This document shows, in pieces, positions 18,670 through 32,055 of a stretch of DNA of 64,000 bases. Location: the NCBI GenBank assembly GCA_964611645.1, contig CAZTAO010000012.1, positions 44,688 through 108,687 of the forward strand. Direction: 5' to 3'. The position numbers and the translations under genes were made by a program. The DNA comes from an uncultured bacterium (GTDB lineage: Bacteria; Armatimonadota; UBA5829). Each line of letters opens with the position of its first letter. The stretch's first letter is position 1. The notes under the pieces are model-generated. The model had not been told where the DNA came from. It worked only from the letters and a program-made list of their open reading frames with translations, and searched no databases.

Positions 18670-19281
18670 ATGACAACACCAACGGTTAGTGCTATCATAA
18701 GCACAAGCAACCAGCGGGAGGCAGGCGTGAGCAGATCGAAAGCGACAGAAGCGACGGTAGTGGAGCAGTCGGAGGAATTTCGCCCATACAGCCGAGAGGT
18801 TCAAAGGCGGTATTACATTCTGAACGCGCCGATAGGGCTGCTTCTGTTCTTGGGATATTGCGCCGTGTGGTCCCAAGAGAATCTCAGAGGCTTTGAGAGA
18901 CTGGTCGTGTGGTTGTACGCCCTCTTCCTGCTTGCGCTGCCAGTATATGGTGTGTATGAATGGACATGCAAGCGGAGAGTGGTCTTCTCTGCAGCAGGGG
19001 TTGTCATTGATAGACTACAAGTGATTCCGTGGCATCGTGTAGTCGGTGTGAAGAGAACTCAGGTGAAACCCTGGTTGGTTCGAGCGGGGCAAGAAAGGCT
19101 TCTCGTTCAGATGGCACCGGAAAGAGCGATTCGAGTTACCGGCGCGTGGTCGCTGTTGCGTCGGGTTCAGCAGGCCTTGGCTCCCAAACCGCAGGAGTTC
19201 GCTCACTTCATACACCCGCCAGAGGTCATTGACCAGATCGTAGCCGCGATGGAGAAGTACTCAGGCAAGGATTTCCACTAG
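18670..19281 (+). CDS. Hypothetical membrane protein (two TM helices plus a PH-like C-terminal region)
   Basis: 203-aa ORF with hydrophobic segments APIGLLLFLGYCAVW and LVVWLYALFLLALPVYGVY. I recognise no family, and the start is uncertain. Confidence 0.5.
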   Translation: MTTPTVSAIISTSNQREAGVSRSKATEATVVEQSEEFRPYSREVQRRYYILNAPIGLLLFLGYCAVWSQENLRGFERLVVWLYALFLLALPVYGVYEWTCKRRVVFSAAGVVIDRLQVIPWHRVVGVKRTQVKPWLVRAGQERLLVQMAPERAIRVTGAWSLLRRVQQALAPKPQEFAHFIHPPEVIDQIVAAMEKYSGKDFH

Positions 19282-19377
19282 CCTTACGCTGAAGGAACCG
19301 CCCCCTAACCCGCCTTTCGCAGCATTGATCCGCGAAGCTGCTTTCGGCCAGCGCCTCCTGGCGCGGAGGGGGGATTA

Positions 19378-20238
19378 CTAACCCTTCACCCCCGAAACCA
19401 CCACTCCCTGTATGAAGTACTTCTGCCCGATGATGAAGATTATCAGCAGGGGCAGCATTACGACCGTGGATGCGGCCATCAGGTAGTTCCAGTCTACCGC
19501 GTATTGGCCTTGGAAGGCGTATAGGCCTAGCGCGAGGGTGCGTTTGGCGGGGGAGTCCAGGTAGATTAGCGGACCAAGGAAGTCGTTCCAGCTTCCCATG
19601 AAAGCGAAAATCGAGACTGTCGCAAGCGCGGGTTTCATCTGGGGCAGCAGCACGTGCCGGTAGACCTGCCAGGTGCTCGCGCCGTCGATTCTGGCGGCTT
19701 CGTCCATCTCTCGGGGGATGGTCATCAGGTACTGCCTGAGCAGGAAGATGAAGAACGGCGCGCCGAAGTAGCTTGGGACGATGAGCGGCAGGAATGTGTC
19801 GTACCAGCCAAGGGTCGCAAAGATCTTGAATACCGGAATCATAGTCACCTGCGCTGGCAGCATCATCGTTGAAAGCAGCACAACAAACAGCACGTCCCGA
19901 CCCGGGAACCGCATCCTTGCAAACCCGAACGCCACCAGCGAGCTGGATATAAGCTGGCCTATCAGCGACAGCCCGGTTATCTGCAGGGTGTTCCATGTAT
20001 ACAGGGCGAACGGCAGCCGCTCGAAGGCCTTGGTGTAGTTGGACCACAACCACGGGTTGGGAATCCACTGGATTGGGTCGGAGAAGATGAACGTGGGATC
20101 CTTGAACGATGATCCCAGCATCCAGACGAACGGGATCAGCGAGACCACTGACCCGACAATCAGGACGGTGTAGCCAATGATCCGCCAGATGCGATTGGAC
20201 CTGCCCTGGTTTCGACTTCGCTCAACCAATGGCTTCAT
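19378..20238 (-). CDS. Carbohydrate ABC transporter permease (CUT1, MalG-like)
   Basis: Six-TM permease with the EAA-type loop MTIPREMDEAARIDGAS..QVYRHVLLP. ATG 20238 overlaps the upstream TGA (ATGA). Confidence 0.9.
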   Translation of the reverse strand: MKPLVERSRNQGRSNRIWRIIGYTVLIVGSVVSLIPFVWMLGSSFKDPTFIFSDPIQWIPNPWLWSNYTKAFERLPFALYTWNTLQITGLSLIGQLISSSLVAFGFARMRFPGRDVLFVVLLSTMMLPAQVTMIPVFKIFATLGWYDTFLPLIVPSYFGAPFFIFLLRQYLMTIPREMDEAARIDGASTWQVYRHVLLPQMKPALATVSIFAFMGSWNDFLGPLIYLDSPAKRTLALGLYAFQGQYAVDWNYLMAASTVVMLPLLIIFIIGQKYFIQGVVVSGVKG

Positions 20239-21146
20239 CGCTTCAACTCCGACTCATAGTAGACCCACGCGCTCGAGGCTTTGAGCATCAGGAGCGTGAG
20301 CGCCAGGATCACCAGAAACAGTATCCACGCCAGCGCGCAGGCGTAGCCCATCTTGAGATACATAAACGCGTTCTGGTAGAGGTACAGCACATAGAACAGT
20401 GTGGAGTAGGCGGGCCCGCCCTGGGTCATGACAAAGGAACTGGCGAACACCTGGAAGCTGCCGATTATGCTCATTATCAGGTTGAACAGAATAGTCGGCG
20501 AGATCATCGGCAGGGTCACATTGCGGAACTTGCTCCGACTCCCCGCGCCGTCTATTTCGGCTGACTCATAGAGCTGCGTGGGCACGCTCTGCAGGCCGGC
20601 AAGGTAGATAATCATCCCACCGCCAACTCCCCACAGGCTCATCAGGATGAACGATGGCAGCGCCCACTCCGGGGTGGTCAGCCACGGCACCGGCCCCAGA
20701 CCGACCTTGCCCAGCAGCACGTTCAGAATACCGCCGTACGGCTTGAACAGCATCAGCCACAGCATCGACACCGCAATCGGGGGCAGGATCGCCGGAATGT
20801 AGAATATCGCCCGGAACGCCCGCATGCCCCGCAGGTTCAAATTGAGCAGCATCGCCAGAGCCAGAGAGCAAGCCAGCCCGAGCGGCACCGACAGCGAAGC
20901 GTAGATGAGAGTCACCTTGAGAGACTGCCTGAACCGGAAGTCGTCGGCGACAATGGTGGCATAGTTGCCCATCCCAACAAACTCAGGAGAGTTGATCATA
21001 TCCCACTTGGTCAGGCTGATGATAAGTGAAAAGATCACCGGTCCCACCGTAAGAAACAAAAAACCAATCAGCCACGGCGATATGCAAAGGAACCCCTCGA
21101 TGGCTTCCTTGCGGCGCATCTGTGAAAGTTTGGGATGGTTTGTCAT
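20235..21146 (-). CDS. Carbohydrate ABC transporter permease (CUT1, MalF/UgpA-like)
   Basis: RRKEAIEGFLCISPWLIGFLFLTVGPV is a typical N-terminus. EAA loop: LYESAEIDGAGSRSKFRNVTLP. ATG 21146 lies 5 nt after the SNF2 stop. The track start 21155 is a TTG. Confidence 0.9.
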   Translation of the reverse strand: MTNHPKLSQMRRKEAIEGFLCISPWLIGFLFLTVGPVIFSLIISLTKWDMINSPEFVGMGNYATIVADDFRFRQSLKVTLIYASLSVPLGLACSLALAMLLNLNLRGMRAFRAIFYIPAILPPIAVSMLWLMLFKPYGGILNVLLGKVGLGPVPWLTTPEWALPSFILMSLWGVGGGMIIYLAGLQSVPTQLYESAEIDGAGSRSKFRNVTLPMISPTILFNLIMSIIGSFQVFASSFVMTQGGPAYSTLFYVLYLYQNAFMYLKMGYACALAWILFLVILALTLLMLKASSAWVYYESELKR

Positions 21147-21151
21147 TCTAC

Positions 21152-22615
21152 TCAATCCCTATGTCCCTGCATTTGTGTTGGATGGCGTGATGCCGTTTGT
21201 CTCCGCTTCGGCGGCTGCATATCGAATAGCCCGAATATGTCTGCCTCCGTAAGGTACTTCTGCAGGTCCAGGCAAACGTCGTCAACGTACTCCGAGAACA
21301 GAGCTTTCTTTGCGAGCAGTATCTGCTGGATGCGCTCTTCTATGGTGCCCTCACAGATGTACTTGTAGACGTTTACTCCTCTGGTTTGACCGATTCTATG
21401 CGTCCTGTCCTCTGCCTGAAGCTCACTTGCAGGGTTCCACCACCGGTCAAAGTGAAACACGTAAGAGGCGCTCTGAATGTTCAGACCGACGCCACCGGCC
21501 TTCAGAGACAAGATCATCACGCCCGCCTCGTGGTACTTCGTGAATACCTCAATAGCCTCCTGCCGCTGGTCAAGACCCATGTCGCCTGTGTAAATGACCG
21601 GCGTGAACCTGGCCAGAGCTTTCCGAAGCCTCCTTACACCGAATTCCTCGCTCGTGTACTGAGAGAATATGAGGGCCTTAGCACCCGCTTCGTGGAGCGA
21701 AGCCAAGCGCATTTCGATGTCGTTTAGCTTAGAGGAGCGGCCCGTTCGCAGGGAGAAGTTACAGACTTGTTTGAGCTTGGTTATAAGCGCAAGCACGTCT
21801 GTCACTGTAACGCTCTCGCCCTTTTCGAGAAGCTCTACTCTGCCTTCAGTAAACAGTTGGTCATATTCGTCGCGTTGATCACGCGTCAGTGATACCTCCA
21901 ACTCAGTGATAATCTTTGCCGGAAGCCTTTCGAGAACGTCTGCCTTTTTTCTCCGTAGTTGCACTTGCTGAAGTATGTCCGGTATGTCCGCATCCCGGAT
22001 AGCCGCCAGTCGCCTGCCACCTGCGCCATCTCGCAGGACAAAGGACAATATCGTGCGCAGGTCTTCCACGCTGTTTTCGAGTGGTGTTCCGGTGAGCGCC
22101 CATCGCCTTTGAGAATGCAGTCGCCTTGCTGCCATGCTGACGCCGGAATCGGGGTTCTTGATTCGCTGCGCTTCATCCAGGCAGATCAAGTCCCAGCCAG
22201 GGAAGTCCGGCCTTGGGGCCACCGCAATCCGCACGTCGTTGCGAAGAGTTTCATAGCCAACTATCTTAACGTGAACATCAGACCGCCACTTCCATCTGCG
22301 CTCACACTGCGCACCGCTAATCTCAATGACTCTGAGATCAGGCGCCCACTTGGCGAGTTCGCTCCGCCAGTTACGCAGAATGCCAGCCGGCGCCACTATC
22401 AGGACTCTTTGCAGTTCACCACGGCGGATCAGCAGCCGCATCGCGGCAATGGCCTGGATGGTCTTGCCTAGTCCCATGTCATCGGCGAGAAGGACGCCTG
22501 GCTTCTCCATCAACACGCCTATGCCCGTTTTCTGGAAGCTGTAGAATTCGTCCGGCCACTCGATTGGACCGGACATAGACAAGGAAGTGTCCGGTGGGGA
22601 TTGGAGAATTGTCAC
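21152..22615 (-). CDS. Compact SNF2-family helicase/translocase (cassette gene D)
   Basis: GTG 22615 has AGGA 7 nt upstream. Motif I DDMGLGKT, motif II DEAQRIKN, motif III LTGTPLEN. Helicase-C: SLKAGGVGLNIQ...FDRWWNPASELQAEDRTHRIGQ. I see no accessory domains. Confidence 0.9.
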   Translation of the reverse strand: MTILQSPPDTSLSMSGPIEWPDEFYSFQKTGIGVLMEKPGVLLADDMGLGKTIQAIAAMRLLIRRGELQRVLIVAPAGILRNWRSELAKWAPDLRVIEISGAQCERRWKWRSDVHVKIVGYETLRNDVRIAVAPRPDFPGWDLICLDEAQRIKNPDSGVSMAARRLHSQRRWALTGTPLENSVEDLRTILSFVLRDGAGGRRLAAIRDADIPDILQQVQLRRKKADVLERLPAKIITELEVSLTRDQRDEYDQLFTEGRVELLEKGESVTVTDVLALITKLKQVCNFSLRTGRSSKLNDIEMRLASLHEAGAKALIFSQYTSEEFGVRRLRKALARFTPVIYTGDMGLDQRQEAIEVFTKYHEAGVMILSLKAGGVGLNIQSASYVFHFDRWWNPASELQAEDRTHRIGQTRGVNVYKYICEGTIEERIQQILLAKKALFSEYVDDVCLDLQKYLTEADIFGLFDMQPPKRRQTASRHPTQMQGHRD

Positions 22616-22639
22616 CGCAGTATCCTTGCTTTGCAGAGC

Positions 22640-23905
22640 TTACTGAAGCTCGCTATCGAGTGGTTCTTCTTCTCGTGCCAAGTCGTCGTCTTCGGAGTAA
22701 TCCTGCACCACTTCATCCACCACGACCTCGGGCCTGTAGTCCGGGTTGAGAAGTATGAGGTCCCATTGTGTGATCCAGGACTTGAGGTGCTCGCGGACGG
22801 AACTCGATGCTCCTCTTCTGCAATCGGCTAGGTGGGGCGCTTCCCAACCAAAGGCCACGCAGTGCAGTCGCCGCACACGTTCCTGCAAGTCATCCAGTTC
22901 GTCGGCCTGGGCGCGTCGCAGCCGCATGCTTTTCTTGAGCAGCTTCATTCCCGTCTCCGCCGCGCGAGCCAACTCCTCGTCTCCCGGCCTGCCTCTCGAG
23001 CGCAGCCACGCGGGTATTTCCTCCGAGTCGTTCAACTTGCCGTCCGCATGCTCCCAAAACTCAGCGGCAACAGCGAAGACAGGCAGCAACCCGCAGACCT
23101 GAAAGTCCTTCATCATCCCCGCAAGTCTCGCCACCTGGGCATAGGACTTGGCGCGCTGAAGCCGTGTGTAGCGAAGAATCAGCTCGACCTCATCGATAAG
23201 GACTATCCAGCCGCCGTATCCCGCCGCGCGGAACAGGCGCGGGAGAAACCGCCACAACTGACCTGCCAACTCCTGCTGGCGGATAGCCTTGACACGGTAG
23301 TTCTTATCCTGTCCTATCTCCTTGAGGGAAGCGCGAAGCTCAACTGTCCTCATCGGATAGCCGGACCATTCCATGGCTATCTTGTCCAGCAACTCGTCGC
23401 TTCCAATGGGCCGCTCCTCGAACACTTTGACAATCGGAGCCAGCCTGCTCTCAAAACTCGCGTCTTCATGAACCCACTTGAACAGTTCGGCGAACTCCTC
23501 GGTGTTGGTCTTCAGCGTGAAGAGTATCTCAGGCACCGCGCGCCCGGTCTTGTCGCTCACAACCGCCGTCTCCGCGGCTGACCGCAGAAGCTTCAGTGGA
23601 TTGGAGAGCGCAGTCTCTTTGCTGACAACCACATGGCTGCATACGCAGTGGTGTTCGAATGCCTCGTGACGGAGGTACTCGAGAATGTGCGACTTGCCCG
23701 CGCCGAACCCCCCGGAGACAACAAGCGAGTTCCTGGATGCCGCGCCGGTTGTTGCCGATTCCCTCATATCCCGCAGGAGATCAGCGAACTTCTGGGTCAC
23801 TTCGCCCTGGAACACACCGAGATGCCTGACTGCGTCACGGTTAGGCACTCCGGATCGCAGGGCCTCAATTGCTCTTCTAGCCTGTATCTTGTCACCATTG
23901 CTCAT
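22640..23905 (-). CDS. P-loop ATPase, DUF2791 / BREX BrxC-BrxD-like (cassette gene C)
   Basis: The N-terminal ARRAIEALRSGVPNRDAVRHLGV helix is followed by Walker A VVSGGFGAGKSH and Walker B GGWIVLIDEVE. The C-tail is acidic (DYSEDDDLAREEEPLDSE). The family call is from recollection. Confidence 0.75.
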   Translation of the reverse strand: MSNGDKIQARRAIEALRSGVPNRDAVRHLGVFQGEVTQKFADLLRDMRESATTGAASRNSLVVSGGFGAGKSHILEYLRHEAFEHHCVCSHVVVSKETALSNPLKLLRSAAETAVVSDKTGRAVPEILFTLKTNTEEFAELFKWVHEDASFESRLAPIVKVFEERPIGSDELLDKIAMEWSGYPMRTVELRASLKEIGQDKNYRVKAIRQQELAGQLWRFLPRLFRAAGYGGWIVLIDEVELILRYTRLQRAKSYAQVARLAGMMKDFQVCGLLPVFAVAAEFWEHADGKLNDSEEIPAWLRSRGRPGDEELARAAETGMKLLKKSMRLRRAQADELDDLQERVRRLHCVAFGWEAPHLADCRRGASSSVREHLKSWITQWDLILLNPDYRPEVVVDEVVQDYSEDDDLAREEEPLDSELQ

Positions 23906-23911
23906 GTTGTC

Positions 23912-24889
23912 TTAGCCCGCCCCATCTCTCTCGTCCGCCGCGTGGACCATAGCCGCCAGGAGATTCTGGCAACTCGCGTCGTGAGCCTCGTTCCTTAGCC
24001 TGTTGTTCAATGCGTAGTAGTCTTTTAGCGCTCTGGCCTGACCAGTCTCGAACTCTATCGGAGCGACAGCGCAGATGAGGCAGTGAAGTGTTTCGTCCAT
24101 ACCATCGATGAATTCCCGCAGCACCTCACAGGCATCGAGGAATCCCGCTTTGGTGTAGATGAGGGAAGTCGCATCTTTCGCCGCGCCTCTCGCGCGCTGC
24201 TTGAGCAATGCGCTCAGTTCGAGACCGATAACAACACCGGAACCCGTGGATTTCGCCAGCCAGTGGGTCAGGCTCTTGAACATATCTCTGGCATTGTGCC
24301 GCTCTATCCGCGAGTAGATTCCCAACTTCCGAAGAGCTGCCAGGCTCACTTTCTCTCCCCGAAGCCAGCCGATCAGGATACTCGCGTCCTCAGCTCCGAC
24401 ATCGCGAGGGAAGAACTGGGATGCGCGAATCCTCGCGAGAGCCGTCCGCAGTTCCTTGCACATGCCGTGGTCCCGTATGATCTCTTCATTTGTGGCTCTG
24501 CGTATTGCTGCCGCCAGTTCGTTCTGGGTGCATCCATTGAACTCCGCTATTGCGGCAATGTCTCCCAGTCCCGCTCCCGGAGGCAGGCCATAGTCATGCC
24601 TGGAGAGAAAGCTCTCTGCGTCACTGGTGGCCAGGGCTTCCCAATCTATGGTCCTGGTGATCGCCAGGAGAAGCTGGTCAATCCGGTCGACTCGGGTCTC
24701 GGAAGCAGATACCTGGGCATAGAAGAAGCCACGCTCCCCCGCAAGTTCGCGAATTCCAAAGAGAGTGGAAGAATTTTGCTCCTCATTCTCTGTCAACACG
24801 AGCTTGAACGCGGAGCCACCGTTCTTGATGAAGTCGCTCAGGTAGTACTCGTCGATTACGTTGAGCCAATTGGCAGCACAGGGTACCAT
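23912..24889 (-). CDS. Uncharacterised protein, apparent Walker-A-less paralogue of the adjacent ATPase (cassette gene B)
   Basis: ATG 24889 lies 4 nt after the gene A stop, with GAGG upstream. FKLVLTENEEQNSSTLFGIRELAGERGFFYAQVSASET aligns with LVVSGGFGAGKSHILEYLRHEAFEHHCVCSHVVVSKET. GSGVVIGLELSALL aligns with YGGWIVLIDEVELIL. Confidence 0.7.
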   Translation of the reverse strand: MVPCAANWLNVIDEYYLSDFIKNGGSAFKLVLTENEEQNSSTLFGIRELAGERGFFYAQVSASETRVDRIDQLLLAITRTIDWEALATSDAESFLSRHDYGLPPGAGLGDIAAIAEFNGCTQNELAAAIRRATNEEIIRDHGMCKELRTALARIRASQFFPRDVGAEDASILIGWLRGEKVSLAALRKLGIYSRIERHNARDMFKSLTHWLAKSTGSGVVIGLELSALLKQRARGAAKDATSLIYTKAGFLDACEVLREFIDGMDETLHCLICAVAPIEFETGQARALKDYYALNNRLRNEAHDASCQNLLAAMVHAADERDGAG

Positions 24890-24893
24890 ATTC

Positions 24894-25679
24894 CTACCTC
24901 GCTATCGGGTCAAATCGGACGGTGCAGTAAAGCCGTCGCTGCCCCTCCCGGGTTATGATCTCCAGGACTTTGGACTTGTCCCGTGTTCCGCTGCTTTGTT
25001 CAAAACCTGCTACGTACCCACCGATTTCCAGTTGCTCTCCGGAGAAGTCCAACAGATAGATGTCTCGCACAAACTCCTGCTCGGAGTAGTCGCTGCCTGG
25101 GGCTGCCGATAGCACTTCATACATGTCCTTGAGGAAGATCGGCTTGCCGTGCCACAGCTCTGACTTCTTCAGATTGGCGGAGGCAAGCGCCTTGTACACT
25201 TTGAACAGAGAGCGCAGGAATCTGCCGGCGGGGAACTTGCTGGGCCGCTTCTGTATATCGCGGAGAATGGTCGCCAGTGTCTTGGGGCGCAGACGACTCT
25301 CCATCTTCTTGTCTATCCGCGCCGCAGTCATATTCGCTTCCAGCCTTACAAGCGCGGGGTAGACGTATAGCACGTCGCCCAGCGGGTAACTGCTGACATC
25401 AGCGTCCGCGAGGCCCGAGGCCAGTTCCTCTCTGTATTCGGGTGAACCGAAGTACTCGCCCAGACTCTGGTCTTCCCAAAATGCCCTGAAAGAACGGATT
25501 CCTTCAGCCGCACTCGACAGCGCCTCTTCCGCTTCCGCCAGTTTCTTGTCGATAGTTCGGATTGCGCCGTCACCCAGCATCTTGTGCGAAGATGCCGCCG
25601 CTGCGGCGCCCTTCTTTGCCGCCTTCAAGGTAGGCTCCAAGTCTGCGAGTCCAGCTACAATAGTCTCTTCAAAAGTCAT
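24894..25679 (-). CDS. Uncharacterised protein, no recognisable domain (cassette gene A)
   Basis: ATG 25679 (MTFEETIVAGL...) has GGAG 8 nt upstream. It encodes 261 aa, with a helical Ala/Glu/Lys-rich N-terminus, and is the first gene of the operon. Confidence 0.65.
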   Translation of the reverse strand: MTFEETIVAGLADLEPTLKAAKKGAAAAASSHKMLGDGAIRTIDKKLAEAEEALSSAAEGIRSFRAFWEDQSLGEYFGSPEYREELASGLADADVSSYPLGDVLYVYPALVRLEANMTAARIDKKMESRLRPKTLATILRDIQKRPSKFPAGRFLRSLFKVYKALASANLKKSELWHGKPIFLKDMYEVLSAAPGSDYSEQEFVRDIYLLDFSGEQLEIGGYVAGFEQSSGTRDKSKVLEIITREGQRRLYCTVRFDPIAR

Positions 25680-25751
25680 TGTTTCGTCTCCACACCTCGT
25701 CCAATCCCACAACTTCGGCTCGAACCAACATCATGTCAGTTGAGCGCAACA

Positions 25752-25780
25752 ATCATATCAACACGGCACAATGAAGTCAA
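25752..25780 (-). promoter_or_regulatory. Near-consensus sigma70-type promoter for the four-gene cassette
   Basis: The minus strand reads TTGACT (25780-25775), a 17-nt spacer, then TATGAT (25757-25752). This lies about 70 nt upstream of the gene A ATG, in an AT-richer 145-nt gap. Confidence 0.45.
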
Positions 25781-25824
25781 CGCAGACCGCATTGCGAGCA
25801 CATCCGGCATTCCGCCCCTTGGCG

Positions 25825-27111
25825 TCATTTATCCCTATGCCTCAGCAACTGGTCGAGGATCGGTTTCAGATTCAGGCAGGCTTCCTTGGCGGACTTCTTT
25901 CCCAGCATTACCAGGTCTAGTTCGTTGCCGATTATCTGGTTCATTTCGGCGTAGCAGGAGACGTGCGGGGTGGCGCGGCCGTATTTGATCATGTCCAGGT
26001 AGACTTTGCGGTTCCTGGGCGGCTCGTTGCGGTCCAGGAAGACCTCCGACTCAGCCAGCGACTTCCTCGTGGGCACCTGGGCGTTTAGGATGGCCTGGTC
26101 GGTCTGGTAGCCTTTTCCGGTCAGCCACTTCAGCACCTCCCACGCCTCGTCCTTGTGCTTGGAGCGGGATATCATAGACCACGCCGCACCGCCGATGAAG
26201 GTGCATCTGGTCTTTGGGCCTTTGGGGATCGGCCCGGCGTCATACTCAAAATCCTTTACTTCTTTCTCAAAGACCAGTTGCGCCGCATACGGGCCGCCGA
26301 TCATCATCCCTATCTTGCCGGAGGTGAACATCTTCCAGTTGCCCTGGCCTGTGGACTCCTCGCGAGTGGGCGCGACGTGATGCTTGTTCACCAAATCCGC
26401 CATCCGCTGGATGCCCTCATAAGCGGCGGGCTGGTCGAGGGTGCAGGTGTTCATGTCCGGGCTGACTATGCTCCCGCCATTTTCATATACGAACAGTTGC
26501 CAGAATGCGATAGACGCCCCCCACTGGTCGGTCTTGCCGTCTCCATCGAGGTCTTTGGTCAGCTTCTTGGCAGCTTCGAGGTAGGTATCGTAGTCCCAGG
26601 ACCAGTCGGGGTAAGGCACTCCGGCTTTGTCGAACATGGTCTTGTTGAAGTAGAGCGCCTCCACATCGACATCGCCGGGGATGGTGTATATCTTGTCGTT
26701 ATACTTCCCCCACCCCTCGATGGCCTCGGGGTAGAAGTCCCAGATATCCCAGTTGTCGCGCTTGATGAATGGGTCAAGTGGCTCCAACAGGCCCTTCGCG
26801 GCCAGCGGAACATACCATTCCGAACTCACGCGGCTGATGTCCGGAGGACGCCCACCCGCCGTGGAAACCATCACCTTCCAACTCAGCCGGTCCCACGTGG
26901 CGATCTCAAGCTCGACCTTGATATTGGGATGAAGTTTCTCGAACTCGGCCAGCGACGCCCGCATGGCCTTCTCTTCTTTGTCATTGGACCAAACAGCCAC
27001 CCGGACCACCGTCTTGCCGGTCTCTTTCTTCCCACAGCCGGGAAGAAGACACACAACCAGGACAGCAGCCAGCAGAAGCCACATCCGAATATGACTGGCG
27101 AGTGTATACAT
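25825..27111 (-). CDS. ABC transporter extracellular solute-binding protein (CUT1 sugar-binding lipoprotein)
   Basis: The sequence has a lipobox (MWLLLAAVLVVCLLPGCGKK) followed by VRVAVWSNDKEE...FEKLHPNIKVELE...GGRPPDI, which is typical of family 1 SBPs. The start is ATG 27111 or 27084. Confidence 0.85.
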   Translation of the reverse strand: MYTLASHIRMWLLLAAVLVVCLLPGCGKKETGKTVVRVAVWSNDKEEKAMRASLAEFEKLHPNIKVELEIATWDRLSWKVMVSTAGGRPPDISRVSSEWYVPLAAKGLLEPLDPFIKRDNWDIWDFYPEAIEGWGKYNDKIYTIPGDVDVEALYFNKTMFDKAGVPYPDWSWDYDTYLEAAKKLTKDLDGDGKTDQWGASIAFWQLFVYENGGSIVSPDMNTCTLDQPAAYEGIQRMADLVNKHHVAPTREESTGQGNWKMFTSGKIGMMIGGPYAAQLVFEKEVKDFEYDAGPIPKGPKTRCTFIGGAAWSMISRSKHKDEAWEVLKWLTGKGYQTDQAILNAQVPTRKSLAESEVFLDRNEPPRNRKVYLDMIKYGRATPHVSCYAEMNQIIGNELDLVMLGKKSAKEACLNLKPILDQLLRHRDK

Positions 27112-27257
27112 ATCACTGGAATTGTAGGGTAGATGGGTATGGGAGGTCAAGTTGGGGGCCAGGCCAACCCCGCCAGTCCTGAGTAGACGCGAGGCGCTGC
27201 CCTGAGCGCAGCGAAGGGAACGAGCGGCGTATCGAAGGACGGAACTGACCAACAGCC

Positions 27258-28016
27258 CTACTCTGCCAATACAGCCCCAGCCTGCTTGGGATTCAGCCAC
27301 TCAGGCCATTTTGTGCCTTTGCTATAGAGCGCTCCATTGAGCTTGATGAACTTCATAGGGTCCAAACGACCAACGCCATCACCAAAAACCTTCAGACCGG
27401 ACAGATCGGCGTCCTGCAGGTTAGCCCGGGACAGATCTACGTTGGTCGCCAGACAATCGAAGCTCGCACCACGCAGGTTGGCGCCATCCCAGATAGTATT
27501 GCTGATAGCCACCTTCTTGATGATCACGCCTGCAAGGTTCGCCCCTCGGAAGGTGGAGTTCGTAAAATCGGTGCCAAGTATCACCACGCCGTGAATCTTC
27601 CCGGTCTGGAACTGTGCGCCGCGAAAGTCGGCTTTGTCAAAGATGCAGTTGCGCAATACAGTACCGACGAACAGCGCCTCCCTCAAATCGGCACCCGTAA
27701 AATCAGCCTCGCTAGCAACCGTATGGTTCGACCTCTCATTGAGTACCACAACACCAAACTGGGCACCACGCAACACCGCCCCCGAGAGGTCAGCTTTCTT
27801 CAAGTCAGCGGCGCTTAGATTGGCCTTTGTGAGATCAGCCCCTTTGAGGTCACGATTGCCGAACTTGGCGAAGCGGAGGTCCTGCCCGGCGAAACTTTCC
27901 CCACCGTTCTGAAGTCTCTTCGAACCGCCCTGCGCTGACTCACCAGTGCGAGTGGAGCATCCCGCACAAATAAGAAGACTCCCAAGAAACAAGCAAAGCA
28001 TTGCTCTTGTGTTCAT
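27258..28016 (-). CDS. Pentapeptide-repeat lipoprotein
   Basis: ATG 28016 (MNTRAMLCLFLGSLLICAGC, lipobox) is followed by runs of A(D/N)L.G repeats (ADLKKADLSGAVLRGAQF..., ANLRGASF..., ANLQDADLSG). Confidence 0.8.
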   Translation of the reverse strand: MNTRAMLCLFLGSLLICAGCSTRTGESAQGGSKRLQNGGESFAGQDLRFAKFGNRDLKGADLTKANLSAADLKKADLSGAVLRGAQFGVVVLNERSNHTVASEADFTGADLREALFVGTVLRNCIFDKADFRGAQFQTGKIHGVVILGTDFTNSTFRGANLAGVIIKKVAISNTIWDGANLRGASFDCLATNVDLSRANLQDADLSGLKVFGDGVGRLDPMKFIKLNGALYSKGTKWPEWLNPKQAGAVLAE

Positions 28017-28137
28017 ATCGATACCCCGCATTCCTCGTTCGATCCGAAACCCGTCGCAGTGGAATTGTAGGCTAATCGCCTTACGGACGTCAAATGTGCC
28101 CACGGGAGGATACCGACCCTCCCACGTGGAACTCTCT

Positions 28138-29322
28138 ATGGATATGCAAAGACTAGACTCGCTCCGCACCAAACTATACAGTTTCGCCATCGCAGCCTCC
28201 ATGGACGGAATGCTGGGGTTTGTGATCCTCGCCACACCGCTGTTCGCCATCAAGCTGGGAGCCACCGCATGGCAACTCGGGATGCTTGGGTGGGTCTCCC
28301 AGATGATACGTGTGCCGTTCACGCTGTTCGCCGGCAGGGTGTCCGACAGAGTCGGGCGCAACACTGTGATCTATCCCTCGGCAGCCTTGGGGGTGATAGG
28401 CTGCGTGGGGCTTGTCTACTCGCACACATTCACGCACGTGCTGATCTCCTATACACTAGTGATGATTGCGATGGGTGGGTTCTACCCCGGGCTGATGGCT
28501 TTCATCGGCGACCGCAGCCCTCAGGGGCAACTGCGAAAGAACCTCTCATTCTTCAATGCCGGTTGGGCCTCGAGCAGCTCTGTGTGCGGGTTGGCGGTTG
28601 GGGCCATGCTTGCGCTCGGGATGTGGACACCGTTCGCGGCAGGAGCTGTCCTGGTGAGTCTGTCCATAGTCCTGGTCTATAGCTGGTCCAAACAGCCATA
28701 TCAGGCGGTCCCCGACGCTCCTGTCGAGGCGGATTCCCTCGCAGCCCCGGCTTCACCCGGCCACATGCTCCTCATCGCTCGGATCAGCCTCTTCCTCACG
28801 GTTTTCGGCTTCTCAATCGTGGCCGGCCTCTTCCCCAAGCTCGGCAAGGATCTCGATATGTCTGACTCCAAGATAAGTATCATAGTCGGGATGCTGCTGG
28901 TCGGGCAGGCCACGGGAATACTGATAGCCGGTGTAAGTCCGTGGTGGCGAGGCAAGCTCTGGCCGCACCTGCTGGCGCACGTCGCAACCCTCTTTGCAGC
29001 GCTGAGCATCCTATTCACGCACTCGGCAGTGGTCTTCGGAGCAGCGATCCTCGTTATCGGCACCGGCGTAGGCGTCACCTACTCCGCCGCGCTCTACTAC
29101 AGCCTCCAGTCGCGCTCCGAGATGGGCAAGAACACAGGAATCCACGAATCGATGATAGCGGTCGCGAGCATAGCCGGGAACCTCGCCGGAGGAGCCACCG
29201 CCCAGATGTTCACCCTGCGCACACCGTACACAGTAACCGCAGTGTTGTCCGGCGTAGCGCTGGTGGTCACTGTCCTGTATTGGATAGCAAAGAGGGATTC
29301 GCTCAGCAAGCCTGCCGAATGA
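28138..29322 (+). CDS. MFS transporter
   Basis: ATG 28138. About 12 hydrophobic helices and an MFS-type loop GRVSDRVGRN. Confidence 0.8.
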   Translation: MDMQRLDSLRTKLYSFAIAASMDGMLGFVILATPLFAIKLGATAWQLGMLGWVSQMIRVPFTLFAGRVSDRVGRNTVIYPSAALGVIGCVGLVYSHTFTHVLISYTLVMIAMGGFYPGLMAFIGDRSPQGQLRKNLSFFNAGWASSSSVCGLAVGAMLALGMWTPFAAGAVLVSLSIVLVYSWSKQPYQAVPDAPVEADSLAAPASPGHMLLIARISLFLTVFGFSIVAGLFPKLGKDLDMSDSKISIIVGMLLVGQATGILIAGVSPWWRGKLWPHLLAHVATLFAALSILFTHSAVVFGAAILVIGTGVGVTYSAALYYSLQSRSEMGKNTGIHESMIAVASIAGNLAGGATAQMFTLRTPYTVTAVLSGVALVVTVLYWIAKRDSLSKPAE

Positions 29323-29349: not shown

Positions 29350-30867
29350 CTACAGCATCGGCGGGGCCTCTATGCCCAGTTCGCTTGCTGCTTCCTTTAC
29401 CAGCTCGTACATCTCGTTTCCGAGTTCGTTGTCCGGCTCTACTTCTCGGCCTTTGGCTTTCTGCGCCTCGACCGACGCCGCTACCCTGTCCAGTATCTCG
29501 GCGGTCTGGGTGTGGTTCTTGTCGTGCTGCGCGCCCGCGGAGAGGCCCCTGTAGAAGAAGGAACTGAACGGAATGCCGTCCTGCATATACTCGATGGTAT
29601 GCTCGGTGGACATGTGCACGCCCTGCTCGAACCTGGCCGCAACGATCTCATCTACTCCCAGGGCCTCATCACTAGCCTCGAAACCGTGAGTCAGCTCCGC
29701 GAACTCCTTGATGATCTCCATATCGATCAACGCCTGCTGGGGGGAGAGCATGTTGCCGTTGCACAGCCCACCGATCTCGGCGAATGTATTGGGCCGGTGC
29801 AAGCCGGAGAAGAACAGGCCATTGAACGCAAACTCATACGCAGCCTGGAGACCAGGTTCATTTGCGTCTCTGTACCAAGTCAGCGGCCAGGCGTCCACCC
29901 CAATGCCCCGCTGCAATAGCTCGCAAAGAGCCAGGTTGCACAGGTGGGTGTGCATCCCCATATAGCTCACACGCGCGGTGCGAAGGTCAAGCGTGCCTGT
30001 GCAGACGTTTCCCATCAGGCCGTAGCCCGGCCTGAGGATTCTAAAGAACGTGAGGGCCGCAAGCACCTCAGCCAGGGCCGTCACCGCGAGGCCCGCGGCA
30101 GTCACTGGCGCGCTCATCCCGCTCACAGACATCGGCCCGATACCCATGGAGTTGCAGATACCAGTATCCACCCTGGCCAGCATCGTCTTGATCCCGCGCA
30201 GCCCCATCCGGAACGGCGGGTTCACATACTCCCACTGGGCCATCGGCTGCTTGGTCCCGCGGTGCTTCTCGTAGACCGACGACATCTTGTCCAGGTAGAC
30301 CACGTGAATCGGCTCGGTCGGCTGCTCGTGGAGGACATTCTTCCGGCAGTGCTTGGCCATCAGCGCGTAGTTGTAGATGGGGGTAAGCCTCTGGTCCACA
30401 TCCTTGAGCATCATCGGGAAGAGATCGCCGATCTGGTCGCAGCCCTGTGCCCAATTGCACAGTTCCACCATATCCTGCCGTGTTGGCCCCTTGGCGGTCC
30501 AGTTGTCCCAGTCGAAGATCAGGTTGCCGCCATTACCCACCCAGAATGCCTTCGGGCAGCCTTCGTCGTTTCTGGCTAACTCTCGGAACGGCTTGGGTAC
30601 GGGAACGGTCTTCACCATCACAGCCATTGTCTCCTCGATCTGCTGTCGGGTGAACATCGCTGCCTTGGCAGGCCAATCGATGCGCGCGCCCTTGCTTTCA
30701 GCTTCCTCCAGGTAGACCTTGCCGCCGTCCTCATCGACCCTCAGGCCGACATTCACCGCCACATCAACGGCTTTCTGCACCATCTCATCAATGGTCCCCT
30801 GGTCCCACGACAGCATACTCGCGTGGTGGGCAACCGGGATGTTCAGATACACTCTCTGCTTTTCCAC
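29350..30867 (-). CDS. MttB (trimethylamine methyltransferase) superfamily protein, non-pyrrolysine type
   Basis: Uninterrupted 505-aa ORF. GMSAPVTAAGLAVTALAEVLAALTFFRILRPGYGLM resembles the MttB-family GG.SPVT.AG...Q..AE.LAG segment. There is no in-frame TAG. Confidence 0.65.
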   Translation of the reverse strand: MEKQRVYLNIPVAHHASMLSWDQGTIDEMVQKAVDVAVNVGLRVDEDGGKVYLEEAESKGARIDWPAKAAMFTRQQIEETMAVMVKTVPVPKPFRELARNDEGCPKAFWVGNGGNLIFDWDNWTAKGPTRQDMVELCNWAQGCDQIGDLFPMMLKDVDQRLTPIYNYALMAKHCRKNVLHEQPTEPIHVVYLDKMSSVYEKHRGTKQPMAQWEYVNPPFRMGLRGIKTMLARVDTGICNSMGIGPMSVSGMSAPVTAAGLAVTALAEVLAALTFFRILRPGYGLMGNVCTGTLDLRTARVSYMGMHTHLCNLALCELLQRGIGVDAWPLTWYRDANEPGLQAAYEFAFNGLFFSGLHRPNTFAEIGGLCNGNMLSPQQALIDMEIIKEFAELTHGFEASDEALGVDEIVAARFEQGVHMSTEHTIEYMQDGIPFSSFFYRGLSAGAQHDKNHTQTAEILDRVAASVEAQKAKGREVEPDNELGNEMYELVKEAASELGIEAPPML

Positions 30868-30890
30868 AAATCTCCTCCGATATCTCTTTT

Positions 30891-31892
30891 CTACGCCGAT
30901 CCCCTCAGCAGAATGGTTGGTTCAAGGACCGCGCTCTGTATCTCGCGATCAGGCTCGGCCATACGGTTCTTCAGAAACCCCCACGCCATCTCGCACATCC
31001 TCGGCACGGGGTAACAGATGGTGCTCAGCGGTGGGTCGAGATACTCGCCGTCCGGAACGCCGTCGCAGCCGAACAGCGCCACATCCTCAGGCATCCGCAG
31101 CCCGAGGTCCTTCAGGCCCCGGTGCGCGCCGACGGCGTGGGAGTCGCTGGCCGATATTATCCCCTCCGGCGCGCCAAACTCCCCAACATATTCCACAACC
31201 GCCCGCCGGGAAGCCGCGCGGATATCCTCGCCGGGGCCCAGCCTGATCTCTATCGAGTCCAGCCCAAGTCCACTCTCTTCAAGGACCGACTTCAGGGCTG
31301 AAAGAAACTCATCGCCGGTAACATCCATTCCCGAGGTTGCGAAGCTGGCAATCCTCGTGCGCCCCTGCTGCACCAGATGCTCCACCGCCTTGCGCAATCC
31401 CTGGCTGATGTCGAAGCCAACGTGGTCCACGTGGGTCTCGTAGTAGAACCCCATGCTGACAATCGGCGGAGCGTATGACGCCCGCGCCTCAAGCCATTCC
31501 CGCAGGGCGCTTGCGCCGCTGTCCAGCGCCAACACGCCATCCACCGGCCAGCCGGCGGTCCGCTCGGCGCGAAGTCTGGTTCCATAGAAGAACCCCAGGT
31601 TACTAATGAGCATCTCCAGCTTCTCGGCTTCCAGAATCTTCTGCACGCTCTCCGCAACCAGCACTTGAAAAGCAGTCAGCCCACCGACCCAAAGCCCGAT
31701 CACCCCGGTCCGACCCGTCGCCAAAGCCCGCGCCGCCCGGTTGGGCACATACCCCATCTCCTTGGCCGCAGCAAGCACCCGGACTCGGGTAGCTTCGGAG
31801 ATGTAGTTGTTGGTCCGCCCATTGAGCACCCGCGAGACAGTCGCGTGCGTAAGCCCAACCTGCTTGGCTATGTCTACAATCGTGACTCTCAA
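30891..31892 (-). CDS. LacI family transcriptional regulator
   Basis: HTH: VTIVDIAKQVGLTHATVSRVLNG...YVPNRAARAL, followed by a periplasmic-binding-like fold. TTG 31892 lies 8 nt after GGAGG. The alternative start is GTG 31910. Confidence 0.85.
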   Translation of the reverse strand: MRVTIVDIAKQVGLTHATVSRVLNGRTNNYISEATRVRVLAAAKEMGYVPNRAARALATGRTGVIGLWVGGLTAFQVLVAESVQKILEAEKLEMLISNLGFFYGTRLRAERTAGWPVDGVLALDSGASALREWLEARASYAPPIVSMGFYYETHVDHVGFDISQGLRKAVEHLVQQGRTRIASFATSGMDVTGDEFLSALKSVLEESGLGLDSIEIRLGPGEDIRAASRRAVVEYVGEFGAPEGIISASDSHAVGAHRGLKDLGLRMPEDVALFGCDGVPDGEYLDPPLSTICYPVPRMCEMAWGFLKNRMAEPDREIQSAVLEPTILLRGSA

Positions 31893-32055
31893 GAGCAGTG
31901 CCTCCTGCACGGTACACGTGTACCGGAATAGGATAGCATTGGGGTCCGGGGTTTGTCAATGCGTCCCTTGCAGGTTCGTGTGGCTAGTGCTATTATAGGT
32001 GAGCCACATGCCGCCGTGATGGCATATTTGCTGGAGAGTGAAGGAGTTATACGCC

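Follow-up and report, generated by a model that had tools for sequence, protein, structure and literature searches.

Locus organization

We analysed a 64,000-nucleotide stretch (hereafter the window, in which all positions are counted) of contig CAZTAO010000012.1 from assembly GCA_964611645.1, which derives from an uncultured Armatimonadota bacterium. Three studies of freshwater and lakes yielded metagenomes that contain this stretch. A listing of open reading frames (ORFs), combined with Pfam and NCBIfam scans, places seven genes on its minus strand in the order SBP-A-B-C-D-permF-permG, and their order and coordinates are those reported in an earlier sequence-only reading of the window. SBP encodes the solute-binding protein of a sugar transporter, permF and permG encode two permeases, and A to D form a cassette that includes a BrxD-like ATPase and an SNF2 helicase. 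This arrangement is a lineage-specific, precisely delimited gain of a reduced cassette copy inside a sugar-transporter operon.

The SBP gene (25825-27111, minus strand) encodes a CUT1-type solute-binding protein of 428 amino acids (Pfam SBP_bac_1, 8e-44; SBP_bac_8, 3e-32), and a consensus scan predicts a promoter-like site, TTGACC-18-TACAAT, 5' of it (27121-27150, minus strand; 10/12 matches). The gene permF (20235-21146, minus strand) encodes an intact MalF/UgpA-like permease of 303 amino acids with a BPD_transp_1 domain; permG (19378-20238, minus strand), the start of which overlaps the permF stop, encodes an intact MalG/UgpE-like permease of 286 amino acids with the same domain (9.5e-25). 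Their top NCBIfam matches are to UgpA/UgpE, GlcT/GlcU and MalF/MalG, all under the equivalog cutoffs. A family-1 solute-binding protein is thus encoded together with two MalF/MalG-type BPD_transp_1 permeases, as in a CUT1 operon, but the unbroken SBP-permease-permease order is lost, with 4.67 kb and four genes lying between SBP and permF. All three transporter genes have kept their full length and show good conservation, so the transporter probably remains in use.

The inserted segment of 4,667 bp (21164-25830, minus strand), recognized from relatives without cassette genes at this position and from in-silico excision, comprises a leader with a promoter-like site followed by A, B, C and D. Gene A (24894-25679, minus strand) encodes 261 amino acids with no Pfam, NCBIfam or PADLOC match. 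Its AlphaFold model (pLDDT 91.6) shows an N-terminal helical hairpin (residues 1-73) and then alpha/beta domains; Foldseek returned nothing at E<=0.001 in a search that in effect tested the hairpin alone, VIA-align matches (Z 8-9) cover this hairpin only, which is a common arrangement, and a PDB profile search yielded only coiled-coil noise. Gene B (23912-24889, minus strand; 325 amino acids) encodes a distant BrxD-like protein, with profile matches to BrxD in Pfam (1.9e-4, below cutoff), NCBIfam (2.5e-6) and PADLOC (2.1e-6); no Walker A motif was found in it by regular expression, and it has no pairwise BLASTP similarity to C. Gene C (22640-23905, minus strand; 421 amino acids) encodes a BrxD-like ATPase of the ORC/Cdc6-type AAA+ class (PF10923; Pfam BrxC_BrxD, 2.3e-20) with an intact Walker A motif, GGFGAGKS, and further matches to NCBIfam BrxD (54 bits; cutoff 350), PADLOC BrxD (7e-15) and SngB (1.7e-8).

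Gene D (21152-22615, minus strand; 487 amino acids) encodes an SNF2 helicase core only (Pfam SNF2-rel_dom, 8e-48, and Helicase_C), with PADLOC matches to ZorD (2.8e-82) and DpdE (1.5e-65) and with its helicase motifs intact in alignments. All four cassette ORFs are intact, including the Walker motif of C and the helicase motifs of D. The D start codon, a GTG with an AAGGA ribosome-binding site, follows the C stop by 24 nt, and the D stop (TGA, 21154-21152) is separated from the permF ATG at 21146 by 5 nt, the spacing given in the sequence-only reading. The 145-nt gap between SBP and A (25680-25824), described there as AT-richer and as holding a promoter-like element, indeed has a GC content of 0.54 against 0.57-0.58 in its flanks and contains the sequence TTGACT-17-TATGAT. 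An Rfam scan of 19000-27500 gave no match at E<=0.1.

Orthologous operons lack the cassette

The history of the locus was traced through orthologous operons. SBP was searched against 40 related genomes and 12 orthologous loci were fetched, to which four from metagenome contigs were added (n=16). None of these loci, drawn from relatives at family to class level, has cassette genes between SBP and permF. Fifteen maintain SBP-permF-permG, contiguous or nearly so, and at the sixteenth (L023, genome G039) the SBP gene alone was matched with the queries used. The nearest relatives are genome G011 (78% identity in SBP, 87-90% in the permeases) and metagenome contig L062 (81% and 85-88%); permF is 87-88% identical to both across residues 1-303, and permG 85-90%. 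In the other relatives SBP orthologues are 52-59% identical, and permF always lies downstream of SBP. The seven-gene order is therefore not conserved, uninterrupted operons of the kind that the sequence-only reading had proposed to look for are found, and the alternative it raised, that SBP belongs to a different transporter, is excluded by conserved synteny.

In most relatives, the gap between SBP and permF measures from a few to ~70 nt, and the final SBP codons double as the Shine-Dalgarno element of permF (for example ...AGGCATAGGGAATAG-AT-ATG in genome G015). The general statement that CUT1 operons run uninterrupted is too strong for this orthologue group, since six of the 16 relatives carry extra material. 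The SBP/permF junctions of G011 and L062 hold fillers resembling repetitive extragenic palindromic (REP) elements, of 183 and 428 bp respectively; that of G017 has a 195-bp spacer; that of G027 an ORF of 283 amino acids on the opposite strand with no Pfam match (L021, 3455-4306); and that of G030 a co-oriented gene of the URO-D superfamily (L025, 3390-4457). A near-identical pair, L064/L078, has ~200 bp between permF and permG. Because other relatives hold fillers, spacers or genes there, the SBP/permF junction is permissive to insertions in this orthologue group.

The REP-like fillers (G011: L014, 11392-11575; L062: 6574-6985, with tandem copies in L062) share motifs such as CCTTCGATACGC and GCTGCGCTCAG with REP-like hairpins upstream of the window's SBP (27160-27260). 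In metagenomic sequencing run X1, summed contig depth climbs from ~7 to 31 at 27159-27400 and several loose contig ends occur there, the pattern that a repeated element would give.

Insert boundaries and assembly support

The sequence-only reading had noted no obvious target-site duplication. This was wrong, as an exact 9-bp direct repeat, CATAGGGAT in the minus-strand reading, sits at both junctions. Its left copy (25831-25839, minus strand) encodes the His-Arg-Asp end of SBP, and its right copy (21155-21163, minus strand) the last D codons, likewise His-Arg-Asp; D's closing three codons and stop lie in or just past this right copy. Beyond the nine exact bases the likeness continues imperfectly, to 14/17. 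Within the right copy also lies an AGGGA Shine-Dalgarno-like element, 5-12 nt upstream of the ATG of permF, and a homologous element, AGGGATT, precedes permF in G011 and L062. When 21164-25830 and one repeat copy are removed in silico, the result is QLLRHRD-stop, GTAGA and ATG, which aligns with the uninterrupted operons; in the window itself SBP ends in RHRDK-stop, the final Lys and the stop coming from the insert. Homology delimits the junctions independently of the repeat; we estimate the chance of an exact 9-bp repeat at these positions at ~1e-4 or less (4^-9 x few offsets). The insert is single-copy in the genome, with a self-match alone, and its ends are unrepeated.

Composition changes at the same junctions. 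Among the genome's long ORFs, the three transporter genes rank high in GC content at third codon positions (GC3; 0.77-0.79, 85th-94th percentile), and A to D rank lower (0.63-0.70, 15th-39th percentile). The tetranucleotide distance of the insert from the genome lies at the 95.6th percentile. Logan contigs of run X1, which may be the source sample and which was put together by an independent assembler, match 19572-24678 and 25436-27207 with no more than one mismatch and bridge both junctions, which are thus present in reads.

These data bear on whether anything was inserted at all. The seven-gene order could be ancestral, or an assembly or binning chimera, and the GC content of the cassette (0.566, near the genome's 0.581) and its lack of a mobility gene would fit with that. 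We give this reading almost no credence in view of the 16 orthologous loci without a cassette at the junction, the flanking direct repeat whose excision restores the ancestral junction, the GC3 steps, the independent contigs across both ends, and the position of the insert ~21 kb inside a 110-kb contig with Armatimonadota-like flanks on both sides. The comparison of sequences makes it extremely likely that the cassette was inserted at this site. The proposal of the sequence-only reading that a module entered a transporter operon is borne out by the orthologous loci, the excision and the compositional steps. As that reading had also suggested, the arrangement delimits the event, with boundaries resolved to the base pair.

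A probably reduced copy of a patchy cassette family

The inserted genes belong to a family with a patchy distribution. Of 401 genomes in the phylum, 51 contain a homologue of A, nearly always in single copy; by genus, the count is 42 of 207. Homologues of C occur in 13 of 61 relatives, every one at another place. Further copies, at ~35% identity, are found in Acetobacteraceae and other Proteobacteria. In the window, A, a B without Walker A and a C with Walker A are co-oriented and tightly spaced, and the order recurs at 23 loci from relatives and Proteobacteria (at one of them, L043, A was detected by an HMMER-based search only). The window's cassette is 50-64% identical to copies in order-level relatives. 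In the phylogeny of the C protein, the window falls within a clade of seven order-level copies (50-63% identity) with 100/100 support, the internal branching of which is too weakly supported to name a donor, and the proteobacterial copies nest within the diversity of the phylum.

The canonical order in the order-level clade is A-B-C-E-D, usually with an Mrr nuclease domain. In relatives, E is a protein of 168-190 amino acids encoded between C and D, or fused to the helicase; its model (pLDDT 88) matches Endonuclease V and the C-terminal half of UvrC (Foldseek 3hd0, E=7e-6, probability 1.0, TM 0.61). The relatives' D comprises 600-750 amino acids, with an N-terminal extension of ~100 amino acids, the SNF2 core and usually Mrr_cat. 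L035, L037 and L038 carry Mrr_cat, as do all seven of the closest non-self D homologues (60-63% identity, 663-741 amino acids). Short D homologues, among them P0012 and P0112, exist as well.

The window's copy departs from this form in several respects. There is no E gene between its C and D and no E homologue anywhere in the genome by tblastn (best match E=0.94), and its D has neither the N-terminal extension nor the Mrr nuclease. The start of D coincides with the first of the conserved core motifs. Upstream of it (22615-22642), the C stop (TAA) and the D GTG are in the same frame, eight codons apart, and these eight codons have no detectable homology to the N-terminal extension of the relatives' D. 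At the other end, the D tail (…PPKRRQTASRHPTQM) resembles the pre-Mrr linker of the closest homologues and then runs into QG-HRD-stop, of which HRD and the stop are target sequence.

Judging from these alignments, it is likely that the copy was reduced at both ends of D and that the right edge of the incoming DNA lies inside gene D. We grade this as likely rather than near-certain because variants without Mrr and variants without E exist elsewhere (L036, L054 and L048); these speak against decay, and the four-gene form might instead be a working variant. The nuclease-less copy may be weakened or non-functional.

Copies in relatives are flanked by unrelated housekeeping genes (GH2, CoA-transferase, GH28, ThiC, GFO-type oxidoreductase and RNase J). 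Genome G011 carries its own cassette copy ~2.5 Mb from its operon, which is intact; there (L041, 5165-16569), an A-B-C copy adjoins mfd (TRCF), and two ORFs of 223 and 361 amino acids without a Pfam match replace E and the SNF2 helicase. At four other loci (L055, L057, L059 and L061) A-B-C occurs with no SNF2 match detected downstream. The comparison suggests that A-B-C is a conserved core whose downstream modules can be swapped.

Several individual copies show features of their own. An additional ORF of 345 amino acids without a Pfam match lies between C and E in G026 (L038, 10228-11265). In G013 (L039, 3029-12574), the cassette begins ~200 nt past the permG of a different CUT1 operon and in the same orientation; the SBP of that operon is 26% and its permeases 42-54% identical to those of the window, and the adjacency may be a coincidence given how many such operons there are. 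The copies in G005 (L040, 7815-13084) and G002 (L044, 878-6656) look decayed, with stops or frame changes in C and D. Either side of the G005 copy bears a 12-bp direct repeat, GATTCGGAAATC, which is also part of a local repeat. No orthologues of the two genes flanking the G027 cassette were found in five family-level relatives, and no second pair of filled and empty sites was obtained.

Comparison with known systems

PADLOC, NCBIfam and Pfam hold no named system containing A to D, and the matches to BrxD, SngB and the ZorD/DpdE/DrmD core are far below the equivalog cutoffs; a literature search found no paper naming this BrxD-pair/SNF2 cassette. The window's cassette shares with the wider BrxD-pair/SNF2(-Mrr) family the A-B-C-...-D order, a PF10923-type C, a B without Walker A, an orphan A, an SNF2 D, a patchy distribution and a promoter-like site of its own. 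It differs from the copies examined in relatives in lying inside an operon and in having its helicase frame closed by target sequence.

The closest described parallel is the BrxD-BrxHI dyad of type 2 BREX (Pgl), for which a helicase-loading role of BrxD has been proposed (Rakesh & Krishnan, NAR 2026, PMC12839542). Both pair a stand-alone ORC/Cdc6-type BrxD-family ATPase tightly with a superfamily 2 helicase, but the window's helicase is of the SNF2 type and not a Ski2/Lhr-like BrxHI, and A and B are additional. None of the type 2 BREX components PglX, PglZ, PglW and BrxC occurs in the ten ORFs scanned (19378-28364 and 29350-31910). The BREX-related systems of the same study (PMC12839542) are centred on DUF499, which was not found at the window locus.

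The SNF2 core of D is homologous to those of Zorya ZorD, Dpd DpdE and DISARM DrmD, and the relatives' D shares the SNF2 plus Mrr architecture of ZorD. The match of the window's D to ZorD is confined to the helicase core (NCBIfam ZorD, 173 bits; cutoff 1500). The cassette is not adjoined by ZorABC, Dpd or Drm partners, and A, B and C have no Zor matches in PADLOC. Shango, with its TerB protein SngA, ATPase SngB and helicase SngC, presents a similar set of an unknown or sensor protein, an ATPase and a helicase, and C matches the SngB profile. It differs in that A has no TerB match, the helicase fits SNF2-type models and not SngC, and the cassette has a second, dead ATPase.

Transcription and function

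The cassette carries its own promoter-like site, TTGACT-17-TATGAT with a TG-extended -10 element (25752-25780, minus strand; consensus scan), a putative sigma-70-like promoter. TTGAC-type sites can be read by eye upstream of A in the relatives' copies too, but the surrounding upstream sequence differs from copy to copy. No terminator-like site lies in the 5-nt spacer between D and permF, and for this reason read-through from the cassette promoter, the SBP promoter or both most likely drives the transcription of permF and permG. The sequence-only reading had offered an insertion and co-transcription of the permeases with the cassette as alternatives; probably both are true together. Translation of permF and permG would still start from the original ribosome-binding site.

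In another study, two metatranscriptome libraries yielded contigs that are 100% identical to A, C, D and the B/C boundary. They are a weak hint of cassette expression, DNA carry-over being possible, and, as they do not cover the transporter genes, they say nothing on the expression of those. A DNA-targeting defence role, probably against phages, is the likely function of the cassette family; the ATPase pair would load or regulate the SNF2 motor and the motor would deliver nucleases.

Origin of the insertion

Taken together, we consider it very probable that a 4.67-kb segment was gained in this freshwater Armatimonadota lineage at the point where the SBP stop meets the permF ribosome-binding site. 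At the proposed landing point, the stop codon of the ancestral SBP would have almost overlapped the ribosome-binding site of the permease. Entry would have occurred by illegitimate recombination, either as insertion into a staggered break or through one crossover that joined a circular fragment to the chromosome across 9 bp of microhomology. The left repeat copy preserves the SBP C-terminus, with one Lys added, and the right copy preserves the permF Shine-Dalgarno element and closes the helicase frame.

Insertion sequence (IS)-type insertion with a 9-bp target-site duplication and illegitimate recombination of accessory genes are both established processes. The event described here resembles the former in the short direct target duplication around a foreign segment and in the retention of both neighbouring functions. 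It differs in having no transposase, no terminal inverted repeats, unrepeated ends and one end that apparently lies inside an incoming gene. No integrase or transposase domain was detected in the ORFs scanned, consistent with the sequence-only reading; no tRNA lies in 10000-36000, and a repeat search found no terminal inverted repeats pairing the insert ends. The marks of an integrase-borne island (an integrase, a tRNA or an att-type target) are accordingly missing. The right end, which apparently cuts gene D, favours a random fragment over a defined element.

The nearest relatives complicate the interpretation of the repeat. The same target occurs twice, imperfectly, in G011 (left ACAGGGACTAA, right ACAGGGATTAG) and in L062 (left ATAGAGATTAG, right ATAGGGATTAG), with 9/11 and 10/11 bases matching, and the fillers between the copies share a homologous 37-nt REP-like core at an equal offset from the SBP stop. 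Because both duplicate the same target around a REP-like filler, the repeat may predate the cassette and hence not be its integration scar. In such a history, a REP-like element would have entered the junction in a common ancestor with G011 and L062, and the filler would later have been swapped for the cassette. Several findings make this unlikely, though not negligibly so. The window insert retains no detectable trace of the REP-like fillers, with alignment scores no higher than those of shuffled controls; nothing in the window's genome matches the L062 filler; the two repeat copies in the window agree at 9/9 bases and the cassette exactly fills the space between them; and the swap would require an additional, unexplained recombination.

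The same duplications could also be taken to mean that the junction is a recurrent, sequence-specific target, cut in a staggered manner by an enzyme acting in trans, with the cassette as a non-autonomous mobile unit. This would account for the duplication of one target around unrelated fillers in sister lineages, for the other genes at the junction in G027 (the 283-amino-acid ORF) and G030 (URO-D-like), and for cassette copies elsewhere among housekeeping genes without mobility genes. We nevertheless find it rather improbable. The insert lacks terminal inverted repeats and has ends that occur only once in the genome, the sequence upstream of A is not conserved among copies, and the right end, which seems to cut gene D, points to a random fragment and not to a defined element. 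Nor do seven other cassette copies show consistent flanking repeats, the best being the single 12-mer in G005 (p ~0.01 before correction for seven tests). As a speculation of still slighter probability, CATAGGGAT, extended to TAG in relatives, could be a reusable target for promoter-bearing defence cassettes and REP-like elements, with the staggered cut made by an enzyme whose gene lies elsewhere or by nuclease-motor proteins of the cassette itself. If true, this would provide the cassette family with a recombinase-free route between housekeeping operons.

Besides the duplicated targets in G011 and L062, other observations weigh against a gain by illegitimate recombination as the whole account. 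The overall GC content of the insert is nearly that of the genome, and every composition value of the cassette is inside the genome's normal range. With no same-genus genome available, the event is undated. No empty-site allele was found at high identity: the predicted empty-site 23-mer has no exact match in metagenome contigs, and no joint skipping the insert was seen in the contigs of four runs, neither of which shows that the allele is absent.

Implications

The gain reported here is a known kind of event and not a new system, as gene gain by illegitimate recombination and patchily distributed defence cassettes are both well known. What the locus offers is a unit of transfer delimited to the base pair, running from a leader of ~150 nt with a promoter-like site through the helicase, and without a recombinase gene of its own. 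It also provides a natural reduced variant, without E and Mrr and with its ORFs intact, as a comparison for which parts of the cassette are needed. For the host, it illustrates how an operon can tolerate a foreign module: nine duplicated bases save both the C-terminus of the upstream protein and the ribosome-binding site of the downstream gene, and the permeases probably now depend on transcription through the foreign module.

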